Notes under the pieces: model-generated
Databases searched by the model: none
Seen by the model: only the letters and a program-made list of their open reading frames with translations
What the model was told of the DNA's origin: nothing
Made by a program: the position numbers and the translations under genes
Part shown: positions 1 through 6,450 of the stretch, in pieces
Position numbering within the stretch: the first letter of the stretch is position 1
How the letters are laid out: the number at the start of each line of letters is the position of its first letter
Source: a virus
Reading direction: 5' to 3' (one strand)
DNA: 6,450 bases
IMG/VR virus record: IMGVR_UViG_3300011982_000013
Location: 1 to 6,450 of that record

Positions 1-97
1 GGCGGCCTCCTCGTCAAAGAGAGAGGGAAGGAGCGTCTGGTGAACGTAGCGACTCCAGAGTCTTCTATCTACGTCGTCATTCACAACGAGGCGAGAG
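1..97. repeat. Terminal redundancy: 1..97 is identical to 6354..6450, consistent with a circular replicon of 6353 bp written with overlap
   Basis: Exact 97-nt match read directly from the sequence (ggcggcctcctcgtcaaagagagagggaagg...gaggcgagag at both ends). The offset between copies is 6353. Confidence 0.9.
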
Positions 98-384
98 GGC
101 ACGAGCTGGAAGAGCTCATCGTCTGAAAGGTCGCTACTTGCATAATCACCATTGCGCGCCTTGAGCTGAGAGATGATAGACGCACGTTCTTGCTCCGTAA
201 GGCGAAGGTCAAGCGCCCGGGCGAGGTCGCCGGTGGGAAGGCCGGTGTTTTCGTTGATTGGAAATACGATTTCCGCACGAGTAGCATCGACCATCGGAAT
301 TGCGAGCTCATCGAACTCGTTGTATCCGAAGTTGTCAGCGTCGCTTACACCGTGACGCATTATGATTTCTGCACGAGTTGCCAT
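1..384 (-). CDS. ORF133: 133-aa acidic hypothetical protein that wraps the origin (128 codons here plus 5 codons and TAG stop at 6336..6353). Possibly an internal scaffolding-like protein
   Basis: ATG at 384..382 lies 4 nt after the VP1 stop. Manual translation is MATRAEIIMRHGVSDADNFGYNEFDELAIPMVDATRAEIVFPINENTGLPTGDLARALDLRLTEQERASIISQLKARNGDYASSDLSDDELFQLVPSRLVVNDDVDRRLWSRYVHQTLLPSLFDEEAA, continuing over the circular junction as PPSDK*. There are no in-frame stops. It is on the same strand as all other genes and has a protein-like, D/E-rich composition. It is absent from the linear ORF track because it crosses the window boundary. No SD sequence; probably coupled to VP1. Confidence 0.5.
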   Translation of the reverse strand, partial: MATRAEIIMRHGVSDADNFGYNEFDELAIPMVDATRAEIVFPINENTGLPTGDLARALDLRLTEQERASIISQLKARNGDYASSDLSDDELFQLVPSRLVVNDDVDRRLWSRYVHQTLLPSLFDEEAA

Positions 385-388
385 AACA

Positions 389-2212
389 CTATATATCTTG
401 AGAACTTACACTCATTGGGCGAATCACTGAAATTCCGAACTGCGAGGCAACGAAAAACTGATCCGTTTTTTCACTTCCATCATAAGATAGAGCGAAAATT
501 CTATCTAGTTGGCGGGGGCTCACAAGCATCGTAGAAGGTACAACGCCTGAGCGGCTGTCATCTTCAGAAAGCTGTACCGGCTGAACTCCGGTCCACGCGG
601 AGAATTGACCATCGCGCCTAAATTCACCATGAAGTCTATCGTATGAAGCTTTGTACTCGTAGTATCGAGGAACGTATCCAAGTGGACGAGCGTACTTGGC
701 AAATTTCGCCTTTTCGATATTATTGCTAAGTTCCATGCCAAAAAGCGGCTGAAAACCAAGATCTTGAAACTCGGGAATGAAGTAATCGCCTCTACCTAGC
801 TTCAAATTGAAAGGGTCAACGCCATCAGCATTGTACTCGGTTTCAGGCACAATGGACATTATCGCCATAATTAGACCATGCTCTCTAGCTTCATAATGTA
901 TAGCGCGTCCGCTATCCGTGCCTACACCTCTACCAAAGATTTGCCCGACAGTCGTATCTGCACCTTGCGCGGTGGCTATAACTTCGGAGATGTCTACACT
1001 AGATGAAGTTCCACCTATATATTCCACTTGGTGTCTCATGAATTCTGGAAGTTTTTCACCAAAGTGAGCCTCTACCTGAGCTGCATAGTCATAGGCGCGC
1101 GCTCTACGTGTACGCTTCTGCATTTTTTCGAGGGCGAAGGCAGCGCGAATAGAGCGAGTCGAAACGCCGTCCCAAGCATTGGTAGAGGTGTTATCGATTT
1201 TGATAGCGTCAGCCTTAGCGTCGCCTTTGCCTGCAGATAAAACCGAAAGAGATTCCTTGGAAGTTGAAAGTCCAAGCGCAGAGGTCAGCGTAGGGGTGTT
1301 ATCTCCGAGTTCCGAAGGATAAACGCCCGTGAAATAGTCGTCCGAAAGCCAACGATAACGCAGGGTCATCATAGCTAAGACACGAGTTAGTTCACCATCA
1401 TCAGAAAAACCGATAGTTTCACCGCCTCCGAGGTCATCTATATTATAGCTGCCTATATTTTGGGGCTCATAATCTTGCCTTCTGTAAAAGTCTTGATAGA
1501 TTTTCTGATAAGCAAGTAGAGCGAAAGGATTAAACTTCTGTTCTACAGAGACTTGTTCAGCTAACCAATTCTTTAGAGTTTGCTTAGTAGCTACACCTAT
1601 TGTTTCTTTGTTAAAAGCGTCAAAAAAGCCCTTAATAAAGATGTCGGAGTAACTCTTACACTGAATTTCCGGCTTGAGCGTGCCATTTGAATAACGCTTA
1701 ACAGTGCAATTAACACCGTAACCAAGCATGTCTAAAAGGCGACAAGCACCCAGACCAAGGTTATAGCCAAGGGCATCTTTTGATTTTCCCTTGAGTTGCT
1801 GATATGCCTGATGTTGGGGAGGTATCGGTAAAACTCCACTCTCAAGGTAAAAAATCTCCGTAAGAACGTTAATAATATTAAGCGTAGGTACCGAAGAGTA
1901 GTTATCTGTTTTCTGGGTGACAGATTTTAGATAACGTTCACCGGTGTATAAGTTCTCGAAGCCTCTCCAGAGATGCCTATACGGAACGAAGAAAAAGTGC
2001 GTGTAGGTCTTGACGCGCACAAGAGCAGCTGTATTGAGCGGTTGCGTCCTAACGAGCTGATCTAGTGAGATTTGCGCTTTCTCTGAAGGGTTCAGATGGA
2101 GCGTCATTGTTGGCACAAGCATGCCAGCTGACATAGTATGGAGCGACCTGTGCGAAAGGTCGAACACGTTGCGCCGATAGTTCGGTGACGGCTGATGAAG
2201 GTGGAGTGCCAT
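389..2212 (-). CDS. VP1: Major capsid protein (Microviridae VP1 / F-protein family), 607 aa
   Basis: The N-terminal region RNVFDLSH...MSAGMLVP...ALVRVKTYTHFFFVPYRHLW matches the conserved gokushovirus VP1 N-terminus pattern (xF[DN]LSH, G.L[VI]P, FFvP.R.vW). The size is typical for the family. The RBS-like AAAGGAAG lies 10 nt upstream. The start is 1 nt after the Rep stop. Confidence 0.9.
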   Translation of the reverse strand: MALHLHQPSPNYRRNVFDLSHRSLHTMSAGMLVPTMTLHLNPSEKAQISLDQLVRTQPLNTAALVRVKTYTHFFFVPYRHLWRGFENLYTGERYLKSVTQKTDNYSSVPTLNIINVLTEIFYLESGVLPIPPQHQAYQQLKGKSKDALGYNLGLGACRLLDMLGYGVNCTVKRYSNGTLKPEIQCKSYSDIFIKGFFDAFNKETIGVATKQTLKNWLAEQVSVEQKFNPFALLAYQKIYQDFYRRQDYEPQNIGSYNIDDLGGGETIGFSDDGELTRVLAMMTLRYRWLSDDYFTGVYPSELGDNTPTLTSALGLSTSKESLSVLSAGKGDAKADAIKIDNTSTNAWDGVSTRSIRAAFALEKMQKRTRRARAYDYAAQVEAHFGEKLPEFMRHQVEYIGGTSSSVDISEVIATAQGADTTVGQIFGRGVGTDSGRAIHYEAREHGLIMAIMSIVPETEYNADGVDPFNLKLGRGDYFIPEFQDLGFQPLFGMELSNNIEKAKFAKYARPLGYVPRYYEYKASYDRLHGEFRRDGQFSAWTGVQPVQLSEDDSRSGVVPSTMLVSPRQLDRIFALSYDGSEKTDQFFVASQFGISVIRPMSVSSQDI

Positions 2213-2213
2213 A

Positions 2214-3596
2214 TTAACAGAACTTCCTTTTGTAATCGTTTAACTTCTTCGTTTTTACGCTGTCTTGTAACAGCAGAGAGGCTTCATTATTTGACCTCAC
2301 AACGAAAGTAGCACATTCTTCCGAAACTTCCAAATCATTGCACGAATTAAGGCAAGATAGCTCATAAGCGACAGACTCAAGTCCTTCAAAATCAGCGTAA
2401 TAACGTTTAAGGCGGAAGCTAAAGATTTTAGTGGCTAGTAACTGAAGGAGATCGTAGTACTCCATAGGGCTAATCCCAAGAGCAATGCAACTAACATAAG
2501 CACTATACGACGAACGAGCATCTTGGTAGGTCCATCCGATAAACCCAGAACGACTATACTCAAAACGATCGCGAAGATTATCAGCGTGAAGCCGAATAGA
2601 AAGTGTATAATCTCGATGTTTATCCAAAACTCTGATAGGGAATGGTATCTCATTGAATTTCAGTAATTTATCACCTAGGCCTCTTTCTCTTGCGTAGTCA
2701 TATGCGTAACGTATGACAGACAATGGGCGTACATCATTTGCGAGGCCAAAGCCTCGAGGGAGTGGGAGCGCTCGACGGAGTAGGTAAGAGGGGATAGCTT
2801 GCTCGCTAAGCTGAAGAGTTCGAGGGTCTTTGACGATTTGCGTAAAAACTCCTTGGATGAGAGTGCGATGCACAAAGCTCTTAATGTCACCAACATACAG
2901 CGAAAGCGGAAGGTTGGAATGCCAGACTTTTGGCCGACATACGCGTAAAGCTTCTCGAGGGAGAGCAGAGACAACACCATGAGAGGCAATATAACTTGAG
3001 AGATAGTTTGCAACTCCTTGAGTGTAAGAGGGGCGGACATCTGAACGACCAAATTTCCAACAGTCAGCCGAAAGCCTCCGTAGCTCGTCGAATTCTCGCT
3101 GGGGGAGCGCCTTGTAAAATAAAGCGATATGGTAATGTGCTCGGTGAGTGAACGAACCGTATTCCCCACAGGTGTAGTAGTAGAGATTGTCGGTGTACTT
3201 GATTTTCCTCCGAAGAGAGATACGCAAACGTTTGTAGTAATCCTGAACATCCTTATAATAGAGGTGTGTACAGCGATCACCATCAGCTTGAGCAGTCCGA
3301 GCGTTAGAGACAAGCGAAAGGCCGTAATCCAAAGGGCGACCAAGGATAGGAGGAACGCCAGGGCGAGTGCTATAGCTATAACCGTCATCATCATTATACT
3401 CATATAGAGGGGCGTTATCATTGCTGTAGGTTAGGGTGATAAACAAGCACTGATACCCCTCCTTACGGAGGGCAGAGTCGAAAGCTTGTATTCTTGAAGA
3501 ACGGGACCGTAGGGCATTAAGCCTGCACACGGGGCACGTTCCACACGAAACAACGTTTCCGTCCGCGAACCGAAGGGGGGATAAGCAGTACCTCAT
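2214..3596 (-). CDS. VP4: Rolling-circle replication initiation protein (Microviridae VP4 / gpA-like HUH endonuclease), 460 aa
   Basis: It carries RCR motif I (LFITLTY), motif II HUH (RAHYHIALF) and motif III with paired Tyr (VANYLSSYIAS, Y-x3-Y as in phiX A Y-VAK-Y). The N-terminal C-x13-CGTCPVCRL Cys cluster is typical of microvirus Rep. The gene is tightly linked to VP1. Confidence 0.9.
   Translation of the reverse strand: MRYCLSPLRFADGNVVSCGTCPVCRLNALRSRSSRIQAFDSALRKEGYQCLFITLTYSNDNAPLYEYNDDDGYSYSTRPGVPPILGRPLDYGLSLVSNARTAQADGDRCTHLYYKDVQDYYKRLRISLRRKIKYTDNLYYYTCGEYGSFTHRAHYHIALFYKALPQREFDELRRLSADCWKFGRSDVRPSYTQGVANYLSSYIASHGVVSALPREALRVCRPKVWHSNLPLSLYVGDIKSFVHRTLIQGVFTQIVKDPRTLQLSEQAIPSYLLRRALPLPRGFGLANDVRPLSVIRYAYDYARERGLGDKLLKFNEIPFPIRVLDKHRDYTLSIRLHADNLRDRFEYSRSGFIGWTYQDARSSYSAYVSCIALGISPMEYYDLLQLLATKIFSFRLKRYYADFEGLESVAYELSCLNSCNDLEVSEECATFVVRSNNEASLLLQDSVKTKKLNDYKRKFC
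2223..2230 (-). promoter_or_regulatory. Shine-Dalgarno-like AAAGGAAG, 10 nt upstream of the VP1 ATG
   Basis: The reverse complement of cttccttt is AAAGGAAG. The identical 8-mer precedes VP2. Confidence 0.5.
2435..2653 (-). CDS. Candidate embedded ORF (72 aa, two predicted TM helices) in the +1 frame inside the Rep C-terminal region. Speculative
   Basis: The translation MRYHSLSEFWINIEIIHFLFGFTLIIFAIVLSIVVLGLSDGPTKMLVRRIVLMLVALLLGLALWSTTISFSY is holin-like (about 70 aa, 2 TM). The same +1 frame is also open for 248 codons upstream (2675..3421). There is no SD, and alternate-frame hydrophobic ORFs are a common artefact. Confidence 0.15.
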   Translation of the reverse strand: MRYHSLSEFWINIEIIHFLFGFTLIIFAIVLSIVVLGLSDGPTKMLVRRIVLMLVALLLGLALWSTTISFSY

Positions 3597-3601
3597 CGCA
3601 A

Positions 3602-3964
3602 CTATTTGCCGTAGTTTTTGCTATACGCAACTACGTATACGATGTCGTGAAAGCGATTGGAGAGATGTCCGCTAACGGAGCGGCGGTTTGGATAGGCTAT
3701 AATGAAGCCTAAGCCGTATTTACCATTATACGTCTCTATGTACTTGTCATCATACTTAACCGAGATGTAGCCTTTGCGGCGAGCGTAGTGGCTGATATAT
3801 AGATAAGAGAGATTTACGAGGTCTTGAATGAACGAGTTGTCAGACTCATCATTGAGCTCGAAAGGGTGGCAAGCTCTGTTTAGACGCAGGTTATTCACTT
3901 GGTCGAGAGCGCGATAGCTTATGCGAGCGAAGTCTAAGACTTGCTTTACGGTCATTGTTCCCAT
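3602..3964 (-). CDS. ORF120: hypothetical Tyr-rich protein, paralog of ORF106 (true start may be Met4, MTVKQVLDF...)
   Basis: It is a same-strand ORF between ORF106 and Rep, with GAAAGG 10 nt upstream. The N-terminus MTVKQVLDFARISYRALDQVN aligns with ORF106 MTIREIFEHLQLPMSVLYDIN. Further shared blocks are F..L..L.YL and R.KGY[FI], plus a Tyr-rich C-terminus. Confidence 0.6.
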   Translation of the reverse strand: MGTMTVKQVLDFARISYRALDQVNNLRLNRACHPFELNDESDNSFIQDLVNLSYLYISHYARRKGYISVKYDDKYIETYNGKYGLGFIIAYPNRRSVSGHLSNRFHDIVYVVAYSKNYGK

Positions 3965-3966
3965 AA

Positions 3967-4287
3967 CTACATAACCTTTCTATACACCTTTACGGTGTGA
4001 TAGCTATTTGACTTCTTGAATAATTCGTAGACATTTGCTTCGTGATAATCTACAGAGGCGCTATCAGAAGAGCCACTCAAAATTATCGGATCTCGATGCT
4101 TCCTGAAGTAACCCTTAACTCTAAGTTCACGAGAACGAACAAAGCCGAGGTACTCGAGATGAGCGAGAAAAAAGTACTTGCACTCATCGTCAGGAGACTG
4201 AGATTGAAAGTAACTTCCATTACGATTGATGTCGTATAACACCGACATTGGGAGCTGGAGATGTTCAAAAATTTCTCTAATAGTCAT
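3967..4287 (-). CDS. ORF106: hypothetical Tyr-rich protein, first copy of the tandem paralog pair
   Basis: It is a 106-aa ORF on the coding strand and the first gene after the long noncoding region. It shows clear sequence similarity to ORF120 (see above). No SD is recognisable. Confidence 0.55.
   Translation of the reverse strand: MTIREIFEHLQLPMSVLYDINRNGSYFQSQSPDDECKYFFLAHLEYLGFVRSRELRVKGYFRKHRDPIILSGSSDSASVDYHEANVYELFKKSNSYHTVKVYRKVM
3975..3980 (-). promoter_or_regulatory. SD-like GAAAGG, 10 nt upstream of the ORF120 ATG
   Basis: Reverse complement of cctttc. Confidence 0.35.
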
Positions 4288-4425
4288 TGTTGCGAAGGCG
4301 AGAGGGGATGTTCATCTCTCACAATACAAAGGTACGACAAATTCCCGAAACTACCAAACATTTACAAAGATTTACCTTTGGTGTACTCCTGGGATGCACC
4401 GCAGGCTAGGATAGATTGACGAGGG

Positions 4426-4436
4426 GAAAGTGAGTG
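4426..4436. repeat. Direct repeat gaaagtgagtg, copy 1. It overlaps a 7-bp hairpin at 4427..4445 (aaagtga / gtgtg / tcacttt) that is followed by TTT
   Basis: Exact 11-mer repeated at 4512..4522. The flanks are also similar (gacgagggGAAAGTGAGTG vs gacaGAAAGTGAGTG). Confidence 0.6.
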
Positions 4437-4511
4437 TGTCACTTTTCCGTAATATATCAAGAACCGGGAGCGCAGAGACCTATTGCGCCGTTTTACCGCA
4501 AAGAACCGACA

Positions 4512-4522
4512 GAAAGTGAGTG
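4512..4522. repeat. Direct repeat gaaagtgagtg, copy 2. Another small hairpin is possible here (gaaag ... gtgcac ... ctttc)
   Basis: Exact match to 4426..4436, 86 nt downstream. Confidence 0.6.
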
Positions 4523-4544
4523 CACCCCTTTCTAGGTGTAAGGT

Positions 4545-4605
4545 GGGTTGTTGTTAAAATATGTTATTATACGTTAAGTTTTATTAATCATACCTTAGTT
4601 TTGCG
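4545..4605. promoter_or_regulatory. AT-rich tract within the intergenic region. The coding (minus) strand carries a perfect TATAAT (4571..4566) and an ATTAATAA octamer (4588..4581) shared with the phiX174-type origin core
   Basis: The plus strand reads ttgttgttaaaatatgttattatacgttaagttttattaatcataccttag. No good -35 partner was found, and the match to the phiX ori (gATATTAATAAcac vs tgATTAATAAaac) is partial. Confidence 0.3.
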
Positions 4606-4610
4606 GGGCG

Positions 4611-4740
4611 CCCGGATACGGCACTACGTTGCACTTGCCTACGCTAGGGCGCTCGTACCACACGCGCGCGCGTGGGAGGCGCGCGCACGCGCGCGATCCT
4701 CGCTTTAGCTGGGGCACTGCAGACGTAGCACCTATCCGGG
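4611..4740. repeat. Large imperfect inverted repeat (cruciform) with outer arms cccggata...tatccggg and a GC-only alternating purine-pyrimidine core at 4661..4695
   Basis: 4611..4618 cccggata pairs with 4733..4740 tatccggg, and partial arm matches continue inward. The core cacgcgcgcgcgtg (a perfect 14-nt palindrome) plus gcgcgcgcacgcgcgcg can form a 10-bp G/C stem (4665..4674 with 4686..4695). The core is Z-DNA-prone. Confidence 0.6.
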
Positions 4741-4756
4741 CTTAGCTCCCTCGGTT

Positions 4757-4776
4757 GCTCGTGCTTACGCACGAGC
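4757..4776. repeat. Perfect 8-bp hairpin gctcgtgc-ttac-gcacgagc
   Basis: Read directly from the sequence. It is a tetraloop hairpin in the ORF-free region. Confidence 0.6.
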
Positions 4777-4905
4777 CGTCGTTATGAACGAGTACTCGAC
4801 CAAAGGTCTCCTACTCGTACTGGAGCTACCTCGTTGTTTGTAAGCGGTAACAGCATTATCACCAAACATAGGTTAATTTTATATATGGTGAAGTCGTTAG
4901 CTATA

Positions 4906-5040
4906 GCTGTAACTGCACCCCCCTTATCGACCAACTGCGAAGCTATTCCTTTTGTGCTGACGTGCAATTTCGTACCTCATTGCACTAACGCACAAAAGGG
5001 CTTCTGATGCAGTTGGGCGATAAGGAGATGCAGTTACAGC
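4906..5040. repeat. Long interrupted hairpin of about 135 nt with about 49 paired bp. Candidate complementary-strand (single-strand) origin or packaging element
   Basis: Paired segments are 4906..4917 with 5029..5040 (12 bp, perfect), 4922..4929 with 5017..5024, 4931..4938 with 5008..5015, 4939..4943 with 4999..5003, 4948..4956 with 4990..4998, and 4962..4968 with 4979..4985. The loop is ttcgtacctc. Each arm also contains internal direct repeats (gatgcagtt twice on the right arm, aactgc twice on the left arm). Confidence 0.6.
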
Positions 5041-5064
5041 GGTGGCTAGTGTACGCCATCACAT

Positions 5065-5128
5065 ATAACAAAAGCACCCACGCGCCTCAAACGCTGTGGT
5101 GCAACGGTTGGGCGCGCGGGTGTTTTTT
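5065..5128. terminator. Candidate bidirectional intrinsic-terminator-like hairpin about 45 nt downstream of the VP2 stop
   Basis: Stem 5075..5086 cacccacgcgcc pairs with 5111..5122 ggcgcgcgggtg (11 of 12 bp), followed by TTTTTT (5123..5128). On the coding (minus) strand the stem is followed by CTTTTGTTAT (5074..5065). The 24-nt loop is long for a canonical terminator. Confidence 0.35.
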
Positions 5129-5165
5129 CGCTCCGCGGGGGGCTCCTTGGATCTGCAGTTACATG

Positions 5166-6170
5166 CTACTTGGCGTGGCTCATGAAGTTTGCCATTCCAT
5201 TCAGGAGGATGCTAGTACCTTGTAGCATTCTATCGACAGGAGCAAACTTTATCTGCGTTTCGTAGTAGCGAGACTGAGTATCCTTTGACTTTATTTCTGA
5301 CTTGATTTTCTCCTCGACGAAGCGCTGAGTTTTGCGAAGGATGACAGCATTTTCCGCTATTACGTCTTGCTGTAAAGTCTCCGTTAGAGCTTTCTTCATA
5401 AGCAACTCCTTTTGAGCGTAAGAGAGCTGAGTTTGAGCGCGGATATACGCCATAGTGACAAAGAGCGACTTTATCTTAGCTTGAATCTCCAACACCTTTG
5501 CAGGGGCAGTGTGCTTGAGCTCGAATTCAGCTAGGAGAGTTTGCGCCTGAATATAGTCAGCTTGATTAGCTGCAGCGAGGGCTTCAGATTGCAACTTCTT
5601 CAAATCAGCCTCCTCGAACTTGCGCTGTCTAGCGACATTATAAAGAGTGCTATCCGTTTGGGCGCGAACGTTTGCTAGTTCAGCTTCGTTCTTATCTTTT
5701 CGAGTTTCATTATCCGTCTCTATGCCTTGCGTTTCAGCTTGTGTTTTAGCTATATCGGCTTCGACTTTCTGTTTCTGAAGGTCTATTAATTGCTGTTGCT
5801 GTGCCATAGCGGCGATTTGCGCGCCGCCAGAGGCAACGCCTTGACCAAGGGTGCCTAGAGCGTTTTCAGCTCGGGGTGCTCCTTCTCCAGAGGCGGAGGT
5901 CACCGCCTGGGTGATACCAGGCGTAATATTCGACAGGGCGAGTGCAGGGTTAATACCTGCTTCCTCGAGACGCTTGCGCTGATTAGCTGGAGTGTTATAT
6001 TCATTGCTCCTATTCCATTGCTCGAGGTTGAAGCGGTTTTGCGCTTCCATGAGTTTCTGTTGGGTAAGAGCGTTGAACTTATTAGTGGAGGCTTGCCCGA
6101 TAGCGGACAAACCTCCACCAATAAGGCTGCTACCTCCAGCGATTAGCGCGGCTAATACAGCTGGAGCCAT
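5166..6170 (-). CDS. VP2: Minor capsid / DNA pilot protein (Microviridae VP2, H-like), 334 aa
   Basis: It has a Gly-rich hydrophobic N-terminus (AAIAGGSSLIGGGLSAIG) and the conserved ...QRKRLEEAGINPALA... motif (gokushovirus VP2 consensus K-[DE]-AG-[LI]-NP). The rest is a Q/A-rich coiled-coil-like region. AAAGGAAG lies 7 nt upstream. Confidence 0.8.
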   Translation of the reverse strand: MAPAVLAALIAGGSSLIGGGLSAIGQASTNKFNALTQQKLMEAQNRFNLEQWNRSNEYNTPANQRKRLEEAGINPALALSNITPGITQAVTSASGEGAPRAENALGTLGQGVASGGAQIAAMAQQQQLIDLQKQKVEADIAKTQAETQGIETDNETRKDKNEAELANVRAQTDSTLYNVARQRKFEEADLKKLQSEALAAANQADYIQAQTLLAEFELKHTAPAKVLEIQAKIKSLFVTMAYIRAQTQLSYAQKELLMKKALTETLQQDVIAENAVILRKTQRFVEEKIKSEIKSKDTQSRYYETQIKFAPVDRMLQGTSILLNGMANFMSHAK

Positions 6171-6172
6171 AG

Positions 6173-6304
6173 CTATTCTTCCTTTTCCATTTCACGTGGA
6201 ACGTCCTCGGGCTTCTCCTTGGGCTTGGGGACAAGACCGAGGATAGAGATAATGAGAGGCACAACGTCTACGATAAACTTGAGCCACTTGATTACCTTGT
6301 TCAT
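6173..6304 (-). CDS. ORF44: small single-TM protein (MNKVIKWLKFIVDVVPLIISILGLVPKPKEKPEDVPREMEKEE), candidate membrane or lysis-related peptide
   Basis: Manual translation of the 165-nt gap between the ORF133 stop (6336) and the VP2 start (6170). It has a hydrophobic core of about 19 residues followed by a K/E/P-rich charged tail. It is on the same strand as the other genes. Its stop overlaps the VP2 RBS and is 2 nt before the VP2 ATG. It is below the 60-aa cutoff of the ORF track. No SD. Confidence 0.3.
   Translation of the reverse strand: MNKVIKWLKFIVDVVPLIISILGLVPKPKEKPEDVPREMEKEE
6178..6185 (-). promoter_or_regulatory. Shine-Dalgarno-like AAAGGAAG, 7 nt upstream of the VP2 ATG (inside the last codons of ORF44)
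   Basis: Reverse complement of cttccttt. The same 8-mer precedes VP1. Confidence 0.5.
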
Positions 6305-6335
6305 AATTGTAAGTATTAAGAGTTATACATACCAG

Positions 6336-6353
6336 CTACTTGTCGCTGGGTGG
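6336..6353 (-). CDS. 3' end of wrap-around ORF133 (codons PPSDK plus TAG stop)
   Basis: This continues the frame of the 1..384 minus ORF across the circular junction (position 6354 corresponds to position 1). The stop is cta at 6336..6338. Confidence 0.45.
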   Translation of the reverse strand, partial: PPSDK

Positions 6354-6450
6354 GGCGGCCTCCTCGTCAAAGAGAGAGGGAAGGAGCGTCTGGTGAACGT
6401 AGCGACTCCAGAGTCTTCTATCTACGTCGTCATTCACAACGAGGCGAGAG
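6354..6450. repeat. Duplicate of 1..97 (circular overlap)
   Basis: Exact identity to the window start. Confidence 0.9.

Follow-up and report, generated by a model that had tools for sequence, protein, structure and literature searches.

Hairpin B is a 132-nt imperfect hairpin, tipped by two alternating CG tracts, in the non-coding region of a microvirus genome (IMG/VR virus record IMGVR_UViG_3300011982_000013, positions 1 to 6,450; these 6,450 nt are referred to as the window). The data fit a cis-element that works in viral-sense single-stranded nucleic acid. We tentatively propose, as a reading that is quite possible but far from assured, that hairpin B is a cis-acting single-stranded DNA (ssDNA) hairpin, serving as the complementary-strand origin or as a closely related single-strand DNA signal. 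Both the choice of ssDNA over RNA as the molecule concerned and the function in priming are inferred.

The window is a complete, circularly closed microvirus genome of 6353 nt, given the 97-nt exact direct repeat at its ends (1-97 and 6354-6450). Small open reading frames (ORFs) lie beside the capsid, Rep and pilot protein genes, and the entire gene set is on the minus strand of the window. Members of the Microviridae package the coding strand, and genes on the complementary strand are highly unusual in this family. The minus strand is therefore the packaged ssDNA, and also has the mRNA sense; it is called the viral strand below. The nearest kin of the window are Alpavirinae-like gut microviruses. 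A search of 5.8 billion proteins gave a single close relative, P0002, with 75% capsid identity and represented by contigs L081 and L082; the next relatives in this search had capsid identities of 49% or less. Among IMG/VR and JGI metagenome protein matches, the capsid identity was 32% at most. L081 differs from the window at about 30% of nucleotides (70% identity), and its non-coding region is about as diverged as the genes. When the non-coding region was compared by blastn with 50,697 phage records, no match was obtained, and sub-regions gave only weak (E = 4) or irrelevant matches.

Structure and conservation of hairpin B

The two CG tracts were as described in the earlier note, and their letters were confirmed. 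The first, at 4661-4674, is the perfect palindrome CACGCGCGCGCGTG; it is followed by GGAG (4675-4678) and by the 17-nt alternating purine-pyrimidine tract GCGCGCGCACGCGCGCG (4679-4695). At the apex, 4 nt separate alternating runs of 16 and 17 nt; when the whole window was shuffled 2000 times with dinucleotides preserved, 3% of the shuffles had a single run of at least 17 nt. Overlapping CGCGCG/GCGCGC hexamers numbered 18 in the window, compared with a shuffle mean of 4.9, and 11 of the 18 are located within this tract. The multiple GCGCGC sites that had been reported were also found, half of the window total (5 of 10) falling in 4664-4689. For the 10-bp all-G/C stem that had been claimed, the pairing was perfect on the plus strand (4665-4674 with 4686-4695; repeat I15), but the composition was not strictly G/C, as nine pairs are G:C and one is T:A.

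The earlier note had also placed the tracts at the centre of an inverted repeat of about 130 nt. Such a repeat, although imperfect, was found at 4610-4741, with its base formed by 4610-4618 (GCCCGGATA) and 4733-4741 (TATCCGGGC; repeat I21).

4610-4741, minus strand: hairpin B, a 132-nt imperfect hairpin of about 51 bp, with five helices and small internal loops between them
4657-4697, minus strand: apex of hairpin B, containing both CG tracts

On the minus strand, the apex consists of a 5' arm (4697-4682, ATCGCGCGCGTGCGCG), a loop region (4681-4673, CGCCTCCCA) and a 3' arm (4672-4657, CGCGCGCGCGTGTGGT). The apex stem has 16 bp on this strand, including four G:U(T) wobbles, and just 10 bp on the plus strand. 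Under DNA energies, the window apex can fold in either of two ways, as the extended stem or as a pair of mini-hairpins, the latter because each CG arm is self-complementary. The 141-nt stretch with the hairpin was more stable than 200 of 200 shuffles on both strands, with DNA-energy z values of -5.9 (minus) and -4.6 (plus), and a 201-nt stretch gave z values of -6.9 (minus) and -4.0 (plus) with RNA energies, under which every one of 200 shuffles was again less stable on either strand. The CG tracts and hairpin B are beyond chance.

Hairpin B of the window was aligned with that of L081 using RNAalifold. All 44 pairs were kept, with 88 of 88 cells paired and none broken; 11 pairs were doubly compensatory and a further 4 had changed on one side only, to or from a wobble. 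In slid controls, with the 3' partners shifted by 1-3 columns, 20-57% were paired and 0-1 compensatory changes were counted. The basal stems accept exchanges of C:G for G:C and of A:U for U:A. Together, these two distinct homologous sequences strongly indicate, short of statistical proof, selection on the pairing of hairpin B. The apex (alignment columns 46-99) was 81% identical between the two sequences, with 8 transitions and 1 transversion, compared with 55% identity, 15 transitions and 20 transversions in the remainder of the hairpin. The apex therefore appears to be constrained in its sequence as well, and its purine-pyrimidine alternation is retained. As the changes at the apex conserve the alternation (8:1), some role for the alternation itself may also exist. 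The same difference in identity makes it plausible that the apex is a protein-recognition site, as the earlier note had suggested.

The G:U(T) wobbles of the minus strand become A:C mismatches on the plus strand. The folding energies of the viral strand and of its complement (kcal/mol) were as follows.

Consensus of window and L081, RNA energies: viral -80, complement -52
Window hairpin B, RNA energies: viral -86.3, complement -75.3
L081 hairpin B, RNA energies: viral -84.3, complement -56.5
Window hairpin B, DNA energies: viral -46.8, complement -45.0
L081 hairpin B, DNA energies: viral -36.3, complement -28.3

The shuffle means were equal on both strands, so composition does not explain the strand difference. 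In L081 and four other lineages the complement was weaker by 5-12 kcal/mol with DNA energies, and the longest non-coding hairpin was more stable on the viral strand in 93 of 130 related genomes. No hairpin B could be aligned in the sister clades (43-49% capsid identity), each of which keeps its own 150-190-nt hairpin in the same non-coding region, with pairing conserved within the clade.

L084 / L088 hairpin: 55 pairs, 6 compensatory, 0 broken
L087 / L089 hairpin: 63 pairs, 9 compensatory, 0 broken

CG/TG-tipped hairpins and origin-like motifs in related microviruses

The earlier note had proposed that related microviruses be searched for the same tract. This search gave the homologous tract in L081 and L082, and analogous hairpins with a CG/TG tip in many other lineages. 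Weak matches of a hairpin B covariance model corresponded to analogous, non-homologous hairpins in L104, L008, L109, L101 and L080, whose capsid proteins are 27-33% identical to that of the window, and like elements were present in L042/45/47/48 and in GenBank MG945818.1. In the analogous hairpins the 5' arm is alternating and CG-rich and the 3' arm is TG-rich, and both energy models gave the viral strand the more stable fold. Their wobbles are mostly of one orientation, with ratios of G(5'):T(3') to T(5'):G(3') of 5:0, 5:1, 4:1, 5:1 and 4:0; the ratio is balanced in the window (3:3) and in L081 (4:4). The statement that (CG)n runs are rare in phage genomes was not borne out within microviruses, since these hairpins recur in many lineages and since the non-coding DNA of 168 related loci had 0.253 alternating runs (14 nt or longer) per kb, compared with 0.010 per kb in coding DNA.

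IMG/VR was also searched with the pattern GCGCGCG-N3-4-CGYGTGTGC; contigs encoding a microvirus capsid were scored as microviruses, and counts refer to the 120 matches listed. Fifteen of these were microviruses (L186, L189, L193, L203, L204, L217, L221, L229, L231, L251, L263, L268, L283, L284 and L290), which form about nine distinct sequence groups by our own grouping. The motif was on the capsid-coding strand in 15 of 15, and was non-coding in 15 of 15. With the mirrored motif (TG arm 5', CG arm 3'), no microvirus was present among the 120 matches listed. Formation of a hairpin is built into the pattern, unlike the bias to one strand, the polarity of the arms and the location in non-coding DNA. 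No description of alternating CG/TG apices with such polarity in microviruses was found in the literature searched, and searches linking Microviridae with Z-DNA, or gokushoviruses with hairpins, gave nothing relevant.

These hairpins might indicate that a polar 5'-(CG)n - short loop - (YG)n-3' hairpin of the packaged strand is a distinct and widespread microviral cis-element, in which the alternation and the G:T wobble polarity are themselves selected. This idea is rather doubtful. If it were true, the stem may take an unusual form (such as a left-handed or a wobble-distorted helix) or may switch between an extended stem and a three-way junction; alternatively, a specific host factor would read the hairpin to launch second-strand synthesis. 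It would then be a priming signal unlike the phiX174, G4 or M13 paradigms, with the hairpin of the window as a divergent example, in which the loop is larger and C-rich and the wobbles are balanced. The CG(5')/TG(3') apex is in any case a simple signature that can be searched for across the Microviridae.

The gene-free stretch that harbours hairpin B is 878 nt long, about 14% of the genome, with fold z values of -16.9 (RNA energies) and -14.3 (DNA energies). At -0.41 kcal/mol per nt, the non-coding region of the window was the most structured among 130 related genomes. From 5' to 3' on the viral strand, the pilot protein stop codon is followed by hairpin C, hairpin A, three short hairpins, hairpin B, an AT-rich spacer, a block of motifs, a promoter-like element and the next gene.

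5070-5126, minus strand: hairpin C, 40 nt past the pilot protein stop codon, whose GC-rich stem precedes CTTTTGTT; predicted to be terminator-like (repeat I5)
4906-5040, minus strand: hairpin A, another long hairpin, near-perfect and with about 57 bp (repeats I2-I4)
4859-4891, 4788-4818 and 4757-4777, minus strand: three short hairpins between A and B (repeats and folds)
4535-4604, minus strand: AT-rich spacer from hairpin B to the origin-like block (alignments A1 and A4)
4496-4533, minus strand: small hairpin AGAAAG...CTTTCT with the 21-nt motif CTTTCTGTCGGTTCTTTGCGG (motif at 4496-4516)
4434-4465, minus strand: origin-like core GGTTCTTGATATATTACGGAAAAGTGACACAC (GGTTCTTGATATATTACGG...), candidate plus-strand origin (Rep nick region)
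4327-4358, minus strand: promoter-like element TTTG-N20-TACCTTTG, about 40 nt upstream of the gene for a 106-aa protein starting at 4287; identical in L081

The end of hairpin B is 75 nt upstream of the conserved motif block, and about 150 nt upstream of the CTTGATAT motif. In its general form CTTTCTGTNGGYTCTTTGCGG, the 21-nt motif was found without mismatch outside its two degenerate positions (N and Y) in two clades only, window/L081 and L008/L101/L104/L109, between which Rep is 24% and the capsid 27% identical.

Window: 4496-4516, minus strand
L008: 7241-7261
L101: 4022-4042
L104: 4592-4612
L109: 7122-7142

The small AGAAAG...CTTTCT hairpin precedes the 21-nt motif in both lineages, and both have a CG-tipped hairpin 75-95 nt upstream of CTTTCTGTNGGYTCTTTGCGG with an AT-rich spacer between them, which is about 90 nt long in the L008/L101/L104/L109 lineage. 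As a sequence that is far better conserved than any protein, the 21-nt motif is probably a replication-origin element. A search of 185,579 representative genomes with the degenerate 21-mer gave two matches, about as many as expected by chance in our calculation, and the one examined (L170) was coding.

The core at 4434-4465 is near-invariant between the window and L081, and gave a weak match (E = 4) to the non-coding DNA of three GenBank Microviridae records. In MG945818.1 (L174, at about 885-925), the CTTGATATATTA core occupies the loop closed by the stem GCTTGGCC/GGCCAAG and is therefore a candidate Rep nick site, as HUH-Rep proteins usually nick within such a loop. The CTTGATAT in 4434-4465 is common to the phiX174 origin core, and, at the 21-nt motif, GTTCTTT of the window resembles the nick site of the f1 gene II protein. 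Because of the position of CTTGATATATTA in a stem-loop loop and the CTTGATAT shared with phiX174, 4434-4533 was taken, by analogy, as the probable plus-strand origin region.

Candidate function and alternative explanations

Microviruses begin their cycle by host-primed synthesis of the complementary strand at a hairpin, the single-strand initiation site (ssi) or primosome assembly site (PAS) in the case of phiX174. In the proposed mechanism, the circular plus-strand DNA would enter the cell and be coated by host single-strand-binding protein, and hairpin B, with about 50 bp and a tip closed by the alternating CG clamp, would stay folded, as would hairpin A. The CG clamp would be a nucleation point resistant to single-strand-binding protein. 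The folded hairpin would then be a landmark for host priming of the complementary strand (by RNA polymerase, primase or PriA), and hairpin B would act like phiX174 ssi/PAS, the minus-strand origins of G4 and M13, and the single-strand origins (sso) of rolling-circle plasmids. The G:T wobbles would hold the fold of the packaged strand and would give A:C on the complement, by which cruciform extrusion in the replicative form would be disfavoured. The conversion of ssDNA to duplex in microviruses is known solely for the phiX174- and G4-type phages of E. coli. No such origin is defined for Alpavirinae-like and other uncultured lineages, and this locus offers a concrete and testable candidate.

A complementary-strand origin is favoured because of the layout of the region, the need of microviruses for a host-primed start at a hairpin, and earlier proposals of minus-strand origins. 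Hairpin B has the general features of ssi and sso elements: it is non-coding, lies on the single-stranded packaged strand and has a conserved, orientation-specific structure, although the asymmetry in the window is small with DNA energies. The ssi/PAS of phiX174, bound by PriA in the F-G intergenic region, is likewise a packaged-strand hairpin in microviral non-coding DNA, is used only in single-stranded form as proposed for hairpin B, and overlaps or adjoins terminator hairpins. In several other lineages the CG/TG hairpin is even sited as in phiX174, directly after the capsid gene. The phiX174 hairpin differs in size (about 55-70 nt, within 217 nt of non-coding DNA including the minus-strand origin, ori(-), compared with 132 nt within 878 nt in the window). 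Hairpin B adjoins a putative plus origin rather than the end of the capsid gene, and has an alternating-CG apex; no similarity to the phiX174 n' site was found by blastn against 50,697 phage records or in Rfam. The intergenic region of f1 and the plasmid sso are located upstream of the double-strand origin and depend on host enzymes only. The multi-hairpin non-coding region of the window is similarly located just upstream of a plus (double-strand) origin, here a probable one, and f1/M13 hairpins B and C and the plasmid ssoA, ssoU, ssoT and ssoW are also imperfect palindromes (130-300 nt) that are orientation-specific. However, none of the promoter-like -35/-10 boxes of ssoA and M13 ori(-) were found in the stem of hairpin B, which has no sequence homology to them. 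The CS-6 sequence of ssoA (TAGCGT) occurs once, at 4641-4646 on the minus strand, but in the stem of helix 4 and not in a loop, and it is absent from L081. A role as minus-strand origins has been tentatively suggested for hairpins with compensatory changes in other uncultured microviruses (PMC9865509). These hairpins, of reekeekee- and roodoodoo-microviruses, were also found by folding and also carry compensatory substitutions, but they are 13-64 nt long in very compact genomes, and neither an alternating CG/TG apex nor polarity was reported for them (PMC9865509). Hairpin B would thus function like the known single-strand origins, yet it lacks the sequence-level hallmarks of each specific family.

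Several observations weigh against this proposal. Only two distinct sequences carry a homologous hairpin B, and in about 1 Mb of related genomes the covariance model found no homologue past L081. With DNA energies the two strands of the window were nearly equal (-46.8 and -45.0), a clear asymmetry being present under RNA energies only, and stems rich in G:U suit RNA better than DNA. The distance from the capsid stop codon to the start of the CG/TG hairpin is 4-8 nt in some lineages; the hairpin must be transcribed there, and a role in the mRNA, as a terminator or 3' stabiliser, is possible. No single-strand promoter, CS-6/RSB element or PAS similarity was recognised in hairpin B, and the elements that bound the region, a terminator and a promoter, are only predicted.

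The main rival is an RNA-level element of the viral-sense transcript, such as a terminator that lacks a U-tract, a stabiliser of the 3' end, a site for RNase III or a part of a structured non-coding RNA; it is unlikely, but it has to be taken seriously. The much larger strand asymmetry with RNA energies, the frequent wobbles (6-8 per hairpin) and the hairpins close to capsid stop codons would suit it, and in phiX174 the terminator and ori(-) overlap in one hairpin. However, hairpin B is downstream of hairpin C, which looks like a canonical terminator and was the only one flagged in a terminator scan; hairpin B itself is followed by GCGCCCCGCAAAAC, with no U-tract. No promoter was found upstream of hairpin B, as sigma-70-like sites were absent from both strands of 4200-5300 and no TAnnTTTG was seen by eye inside 4610-4741. 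The whole window had no match on either strand to the 4227 families of Rfam 15 at E up to 1, and the preference for the viral strand persists with DNA energies in L081 and four lineages. A different role in ssDNA, as an accessory site for Rep termination or re-initiation, a packaging or condensation signal, or a protection against nucleases or defence systems, is improbable. The distance of 75-95 nt to an origin-like motif that is deeply conserved between two highly divergent lineages, the higher conservation of the apex sequence over the stems and the arm polarity of the element are concordant with such a role, but the position relative to origin-like motifs varies, with the hairpin of MG945818 located downstream of the CTTGATAT loop and others directly after the capsid gene, and we know of no microvirus packaging or termination signal of this form. 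The hairpin could also be a largely non-functional by-product, in which slippage of a self-complementary (CG)n microsatellite was followed by single-strand C-to-T decay that left a TG-rich arm. This has a low probability. The (CG)n sequence is both a direct and an inverted repeat (D7, I15), the gain of an 80-nt palindrome by hairpin A of L081 indicates that palindromes grow in this region, and nearly all changes at the apex are transitions. Against this stand the 11 compensatory double changes with no broken pair over about 30% divergence, the apex being more conserved than its flanks, and an arrangement relative to the 21-nt motif that is retained across 24-27% protein identity. The strict arm polarity, 15 to 0 among the matches listed, would not be produced by symmetric decay either.

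The reading of the earlier note, Z-DNA or a cruciform formed in the replicative form as a possible site of protein recognition, is given little likelihood, also when extended to a flip under supercoiling that would control replication or transcription. The tracts have the sequence character expected of Z-DNA (purines and pyrimidines in alternation over some 12 bp or more, preferably as (CG)n): like known (CG)n/(TG)n tracts they are alternating runs of at least 16 nt (16 and 17 nt), and the alternation is preserved in L081, almost wholly through transitions. Alternating tracts are also enriched in microviral non-coding DNA, and the two window strands fold about equally with DNA energies. However, Z-DNA does not explain the covariation in the four basal helices, and a cruciform needs both strands to fold, with A:C mismatches that cost 8-12 kcal/mol in L081, L104, L008 and L080 (DNA energies). 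The selection on hairpin B appears to act on pairing within a strand, and polarity by strand and arm is unexpected for a symmetric duplex structure. The 44 of 44 pairs kept and the 11 compensatory changes speak for such pairing, and the wobbles and the consensus energies of -80 and -52 favour the viral strand, with the caveat that the DNA energies of the window strands are nearly equal. A folded attP of the CTXphi type, with inverted dif-like half-sites joined for integration by host XerC/D, is very unlikely. The attP(+) of CTXphi is comparable: this hairpin, about 150 nt in size, is present only in the single strand that the ssDNA phage packages, and XerC/D use has been suggested for relatives of the window. 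Dif-like sites flank related microvirus prophages of Bacteroidetes, and some of these prophages have a second, inverted dif-like site that the authors likened to CTXphi (PMC3091885). The stem of hairpin B has no dif-like half-sites, however: the best dif score was 21.5, compared with a shuffle mean of 21.9 and maximum of 29.5, and with the proteobacterial consensus used no site was above chance in the window and five relatives and none was in 4610-4741. The conserved-motif search of the 185,579 representative genomes described above gave no prophage copy. A mobile palindrome similar to miniature inverted-repeat transposable elements (MITE) or repetitive extragenic palindromic (REP) elements was rejected, as the genome has a single copy, the orthologous site of L081 was the only other one in about 1 Mb of related genomes, and the hairpin is as diverged as its flanks; bacterial genomes were not scanned with the hairpin. 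Exact scans with the 35-mer of the apex and a 20-mer of the conserved block gave 0 matches in IMG/VR, JGI metagenomes and 185,579 genomes. Finally, an artefact of assembly or amplification, for example a fold-back chimera, can be discounted almost entirely. A Logan assembly of run SRR2037085 (L083), from a second assembler but possibly from the same reads as the window record, was 100% identical to window 102-4709 including both tracts, and the homologous tract is present in two other ENA samples (L081 and L082), where the genome is about 30% diverged and the changes are compensatory. The artefact raised in the earlier note was thereby effectively refuted. In its favour, the L083 contig of the same virus stops at 4709, inside hairpin B and 14 nt beyond the tracts, and no repeat of at least 31 nt accounts for this break. 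It may reflect a coverage dip at the GC-rich hairpin, at a locus that may be hard to sequence or assemble; for metagenome assembly it is relevant that a contig of this virus breaks at hairpin B.

Genome context and neighbouring elements

The main genes of the window are listed below. Features near the window ends, such as the minus-strand ORF at 81-311, may cross the junction of the circle.

389-2212, minus strand: major capsid protein (Pfam Phage_F, E 3.7e-29; PHROG 514, E 1.7e-71)
2214-3596, minus strand: rolling-circle Rep (PF23343 match)
5166-6170, minus strand: DNA pilot protein (PHROG 8689), with its stop codon at 5166

Small ORFs that overlap hairpin B (4520-4708 on the plus strand; 4595-4717 and 4644-4772 on the minus strand) were rejected as genes, as they have no family matches and their frames are broken by indels in L081. 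No tRNA or tmRNA gene was found in the window with ARAGORN. The non-coding region of about 880 nt is probably not dispensable in synthetic or engineered microviruses.

Hairpin C was almost invariant between the window and L081, with 23 of 23 pairs kept and one flip from G:U to U:G, a change that keeps the pairing only on the viral-sense strand. In L081 (at about 4560-4645), hairpin A has an extra 80-nt AT-rich perfect palindrome at its apex, which brings it to 84 bp and 209 nt; palindromes of the non-coding region evidently grow by insertion at the tip.

The promoter-like element TTTG-N20-TACCTTTG appears to fit the Bacteroidetes -33/-7 promoter consensus, and a TATCTTTG box is present in L008 at the equivalent position. 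This element hints at a host in the Bacteroidota; the host is probably non-enterobacterial.

In L084, L086, L087, L088 and L089 (43-49% identity), the first gene after the non-coding region encodes a phage lysozyme (PF00959). In the window (3602-4287) and in L081, two small ORFs of 106 and 120 aa without family match are located where these kin carry the lysozyme. The contigs L007, L008, L101, L104 and L109 are 8.8-23.7 kb long and encode a microvirus capsid, pilot protein and Rep, which exceeds the normal microvirus length. They have minus-strand ORFs past the hairpin region, and could be prophages, concatemers or unusually large microviruses.

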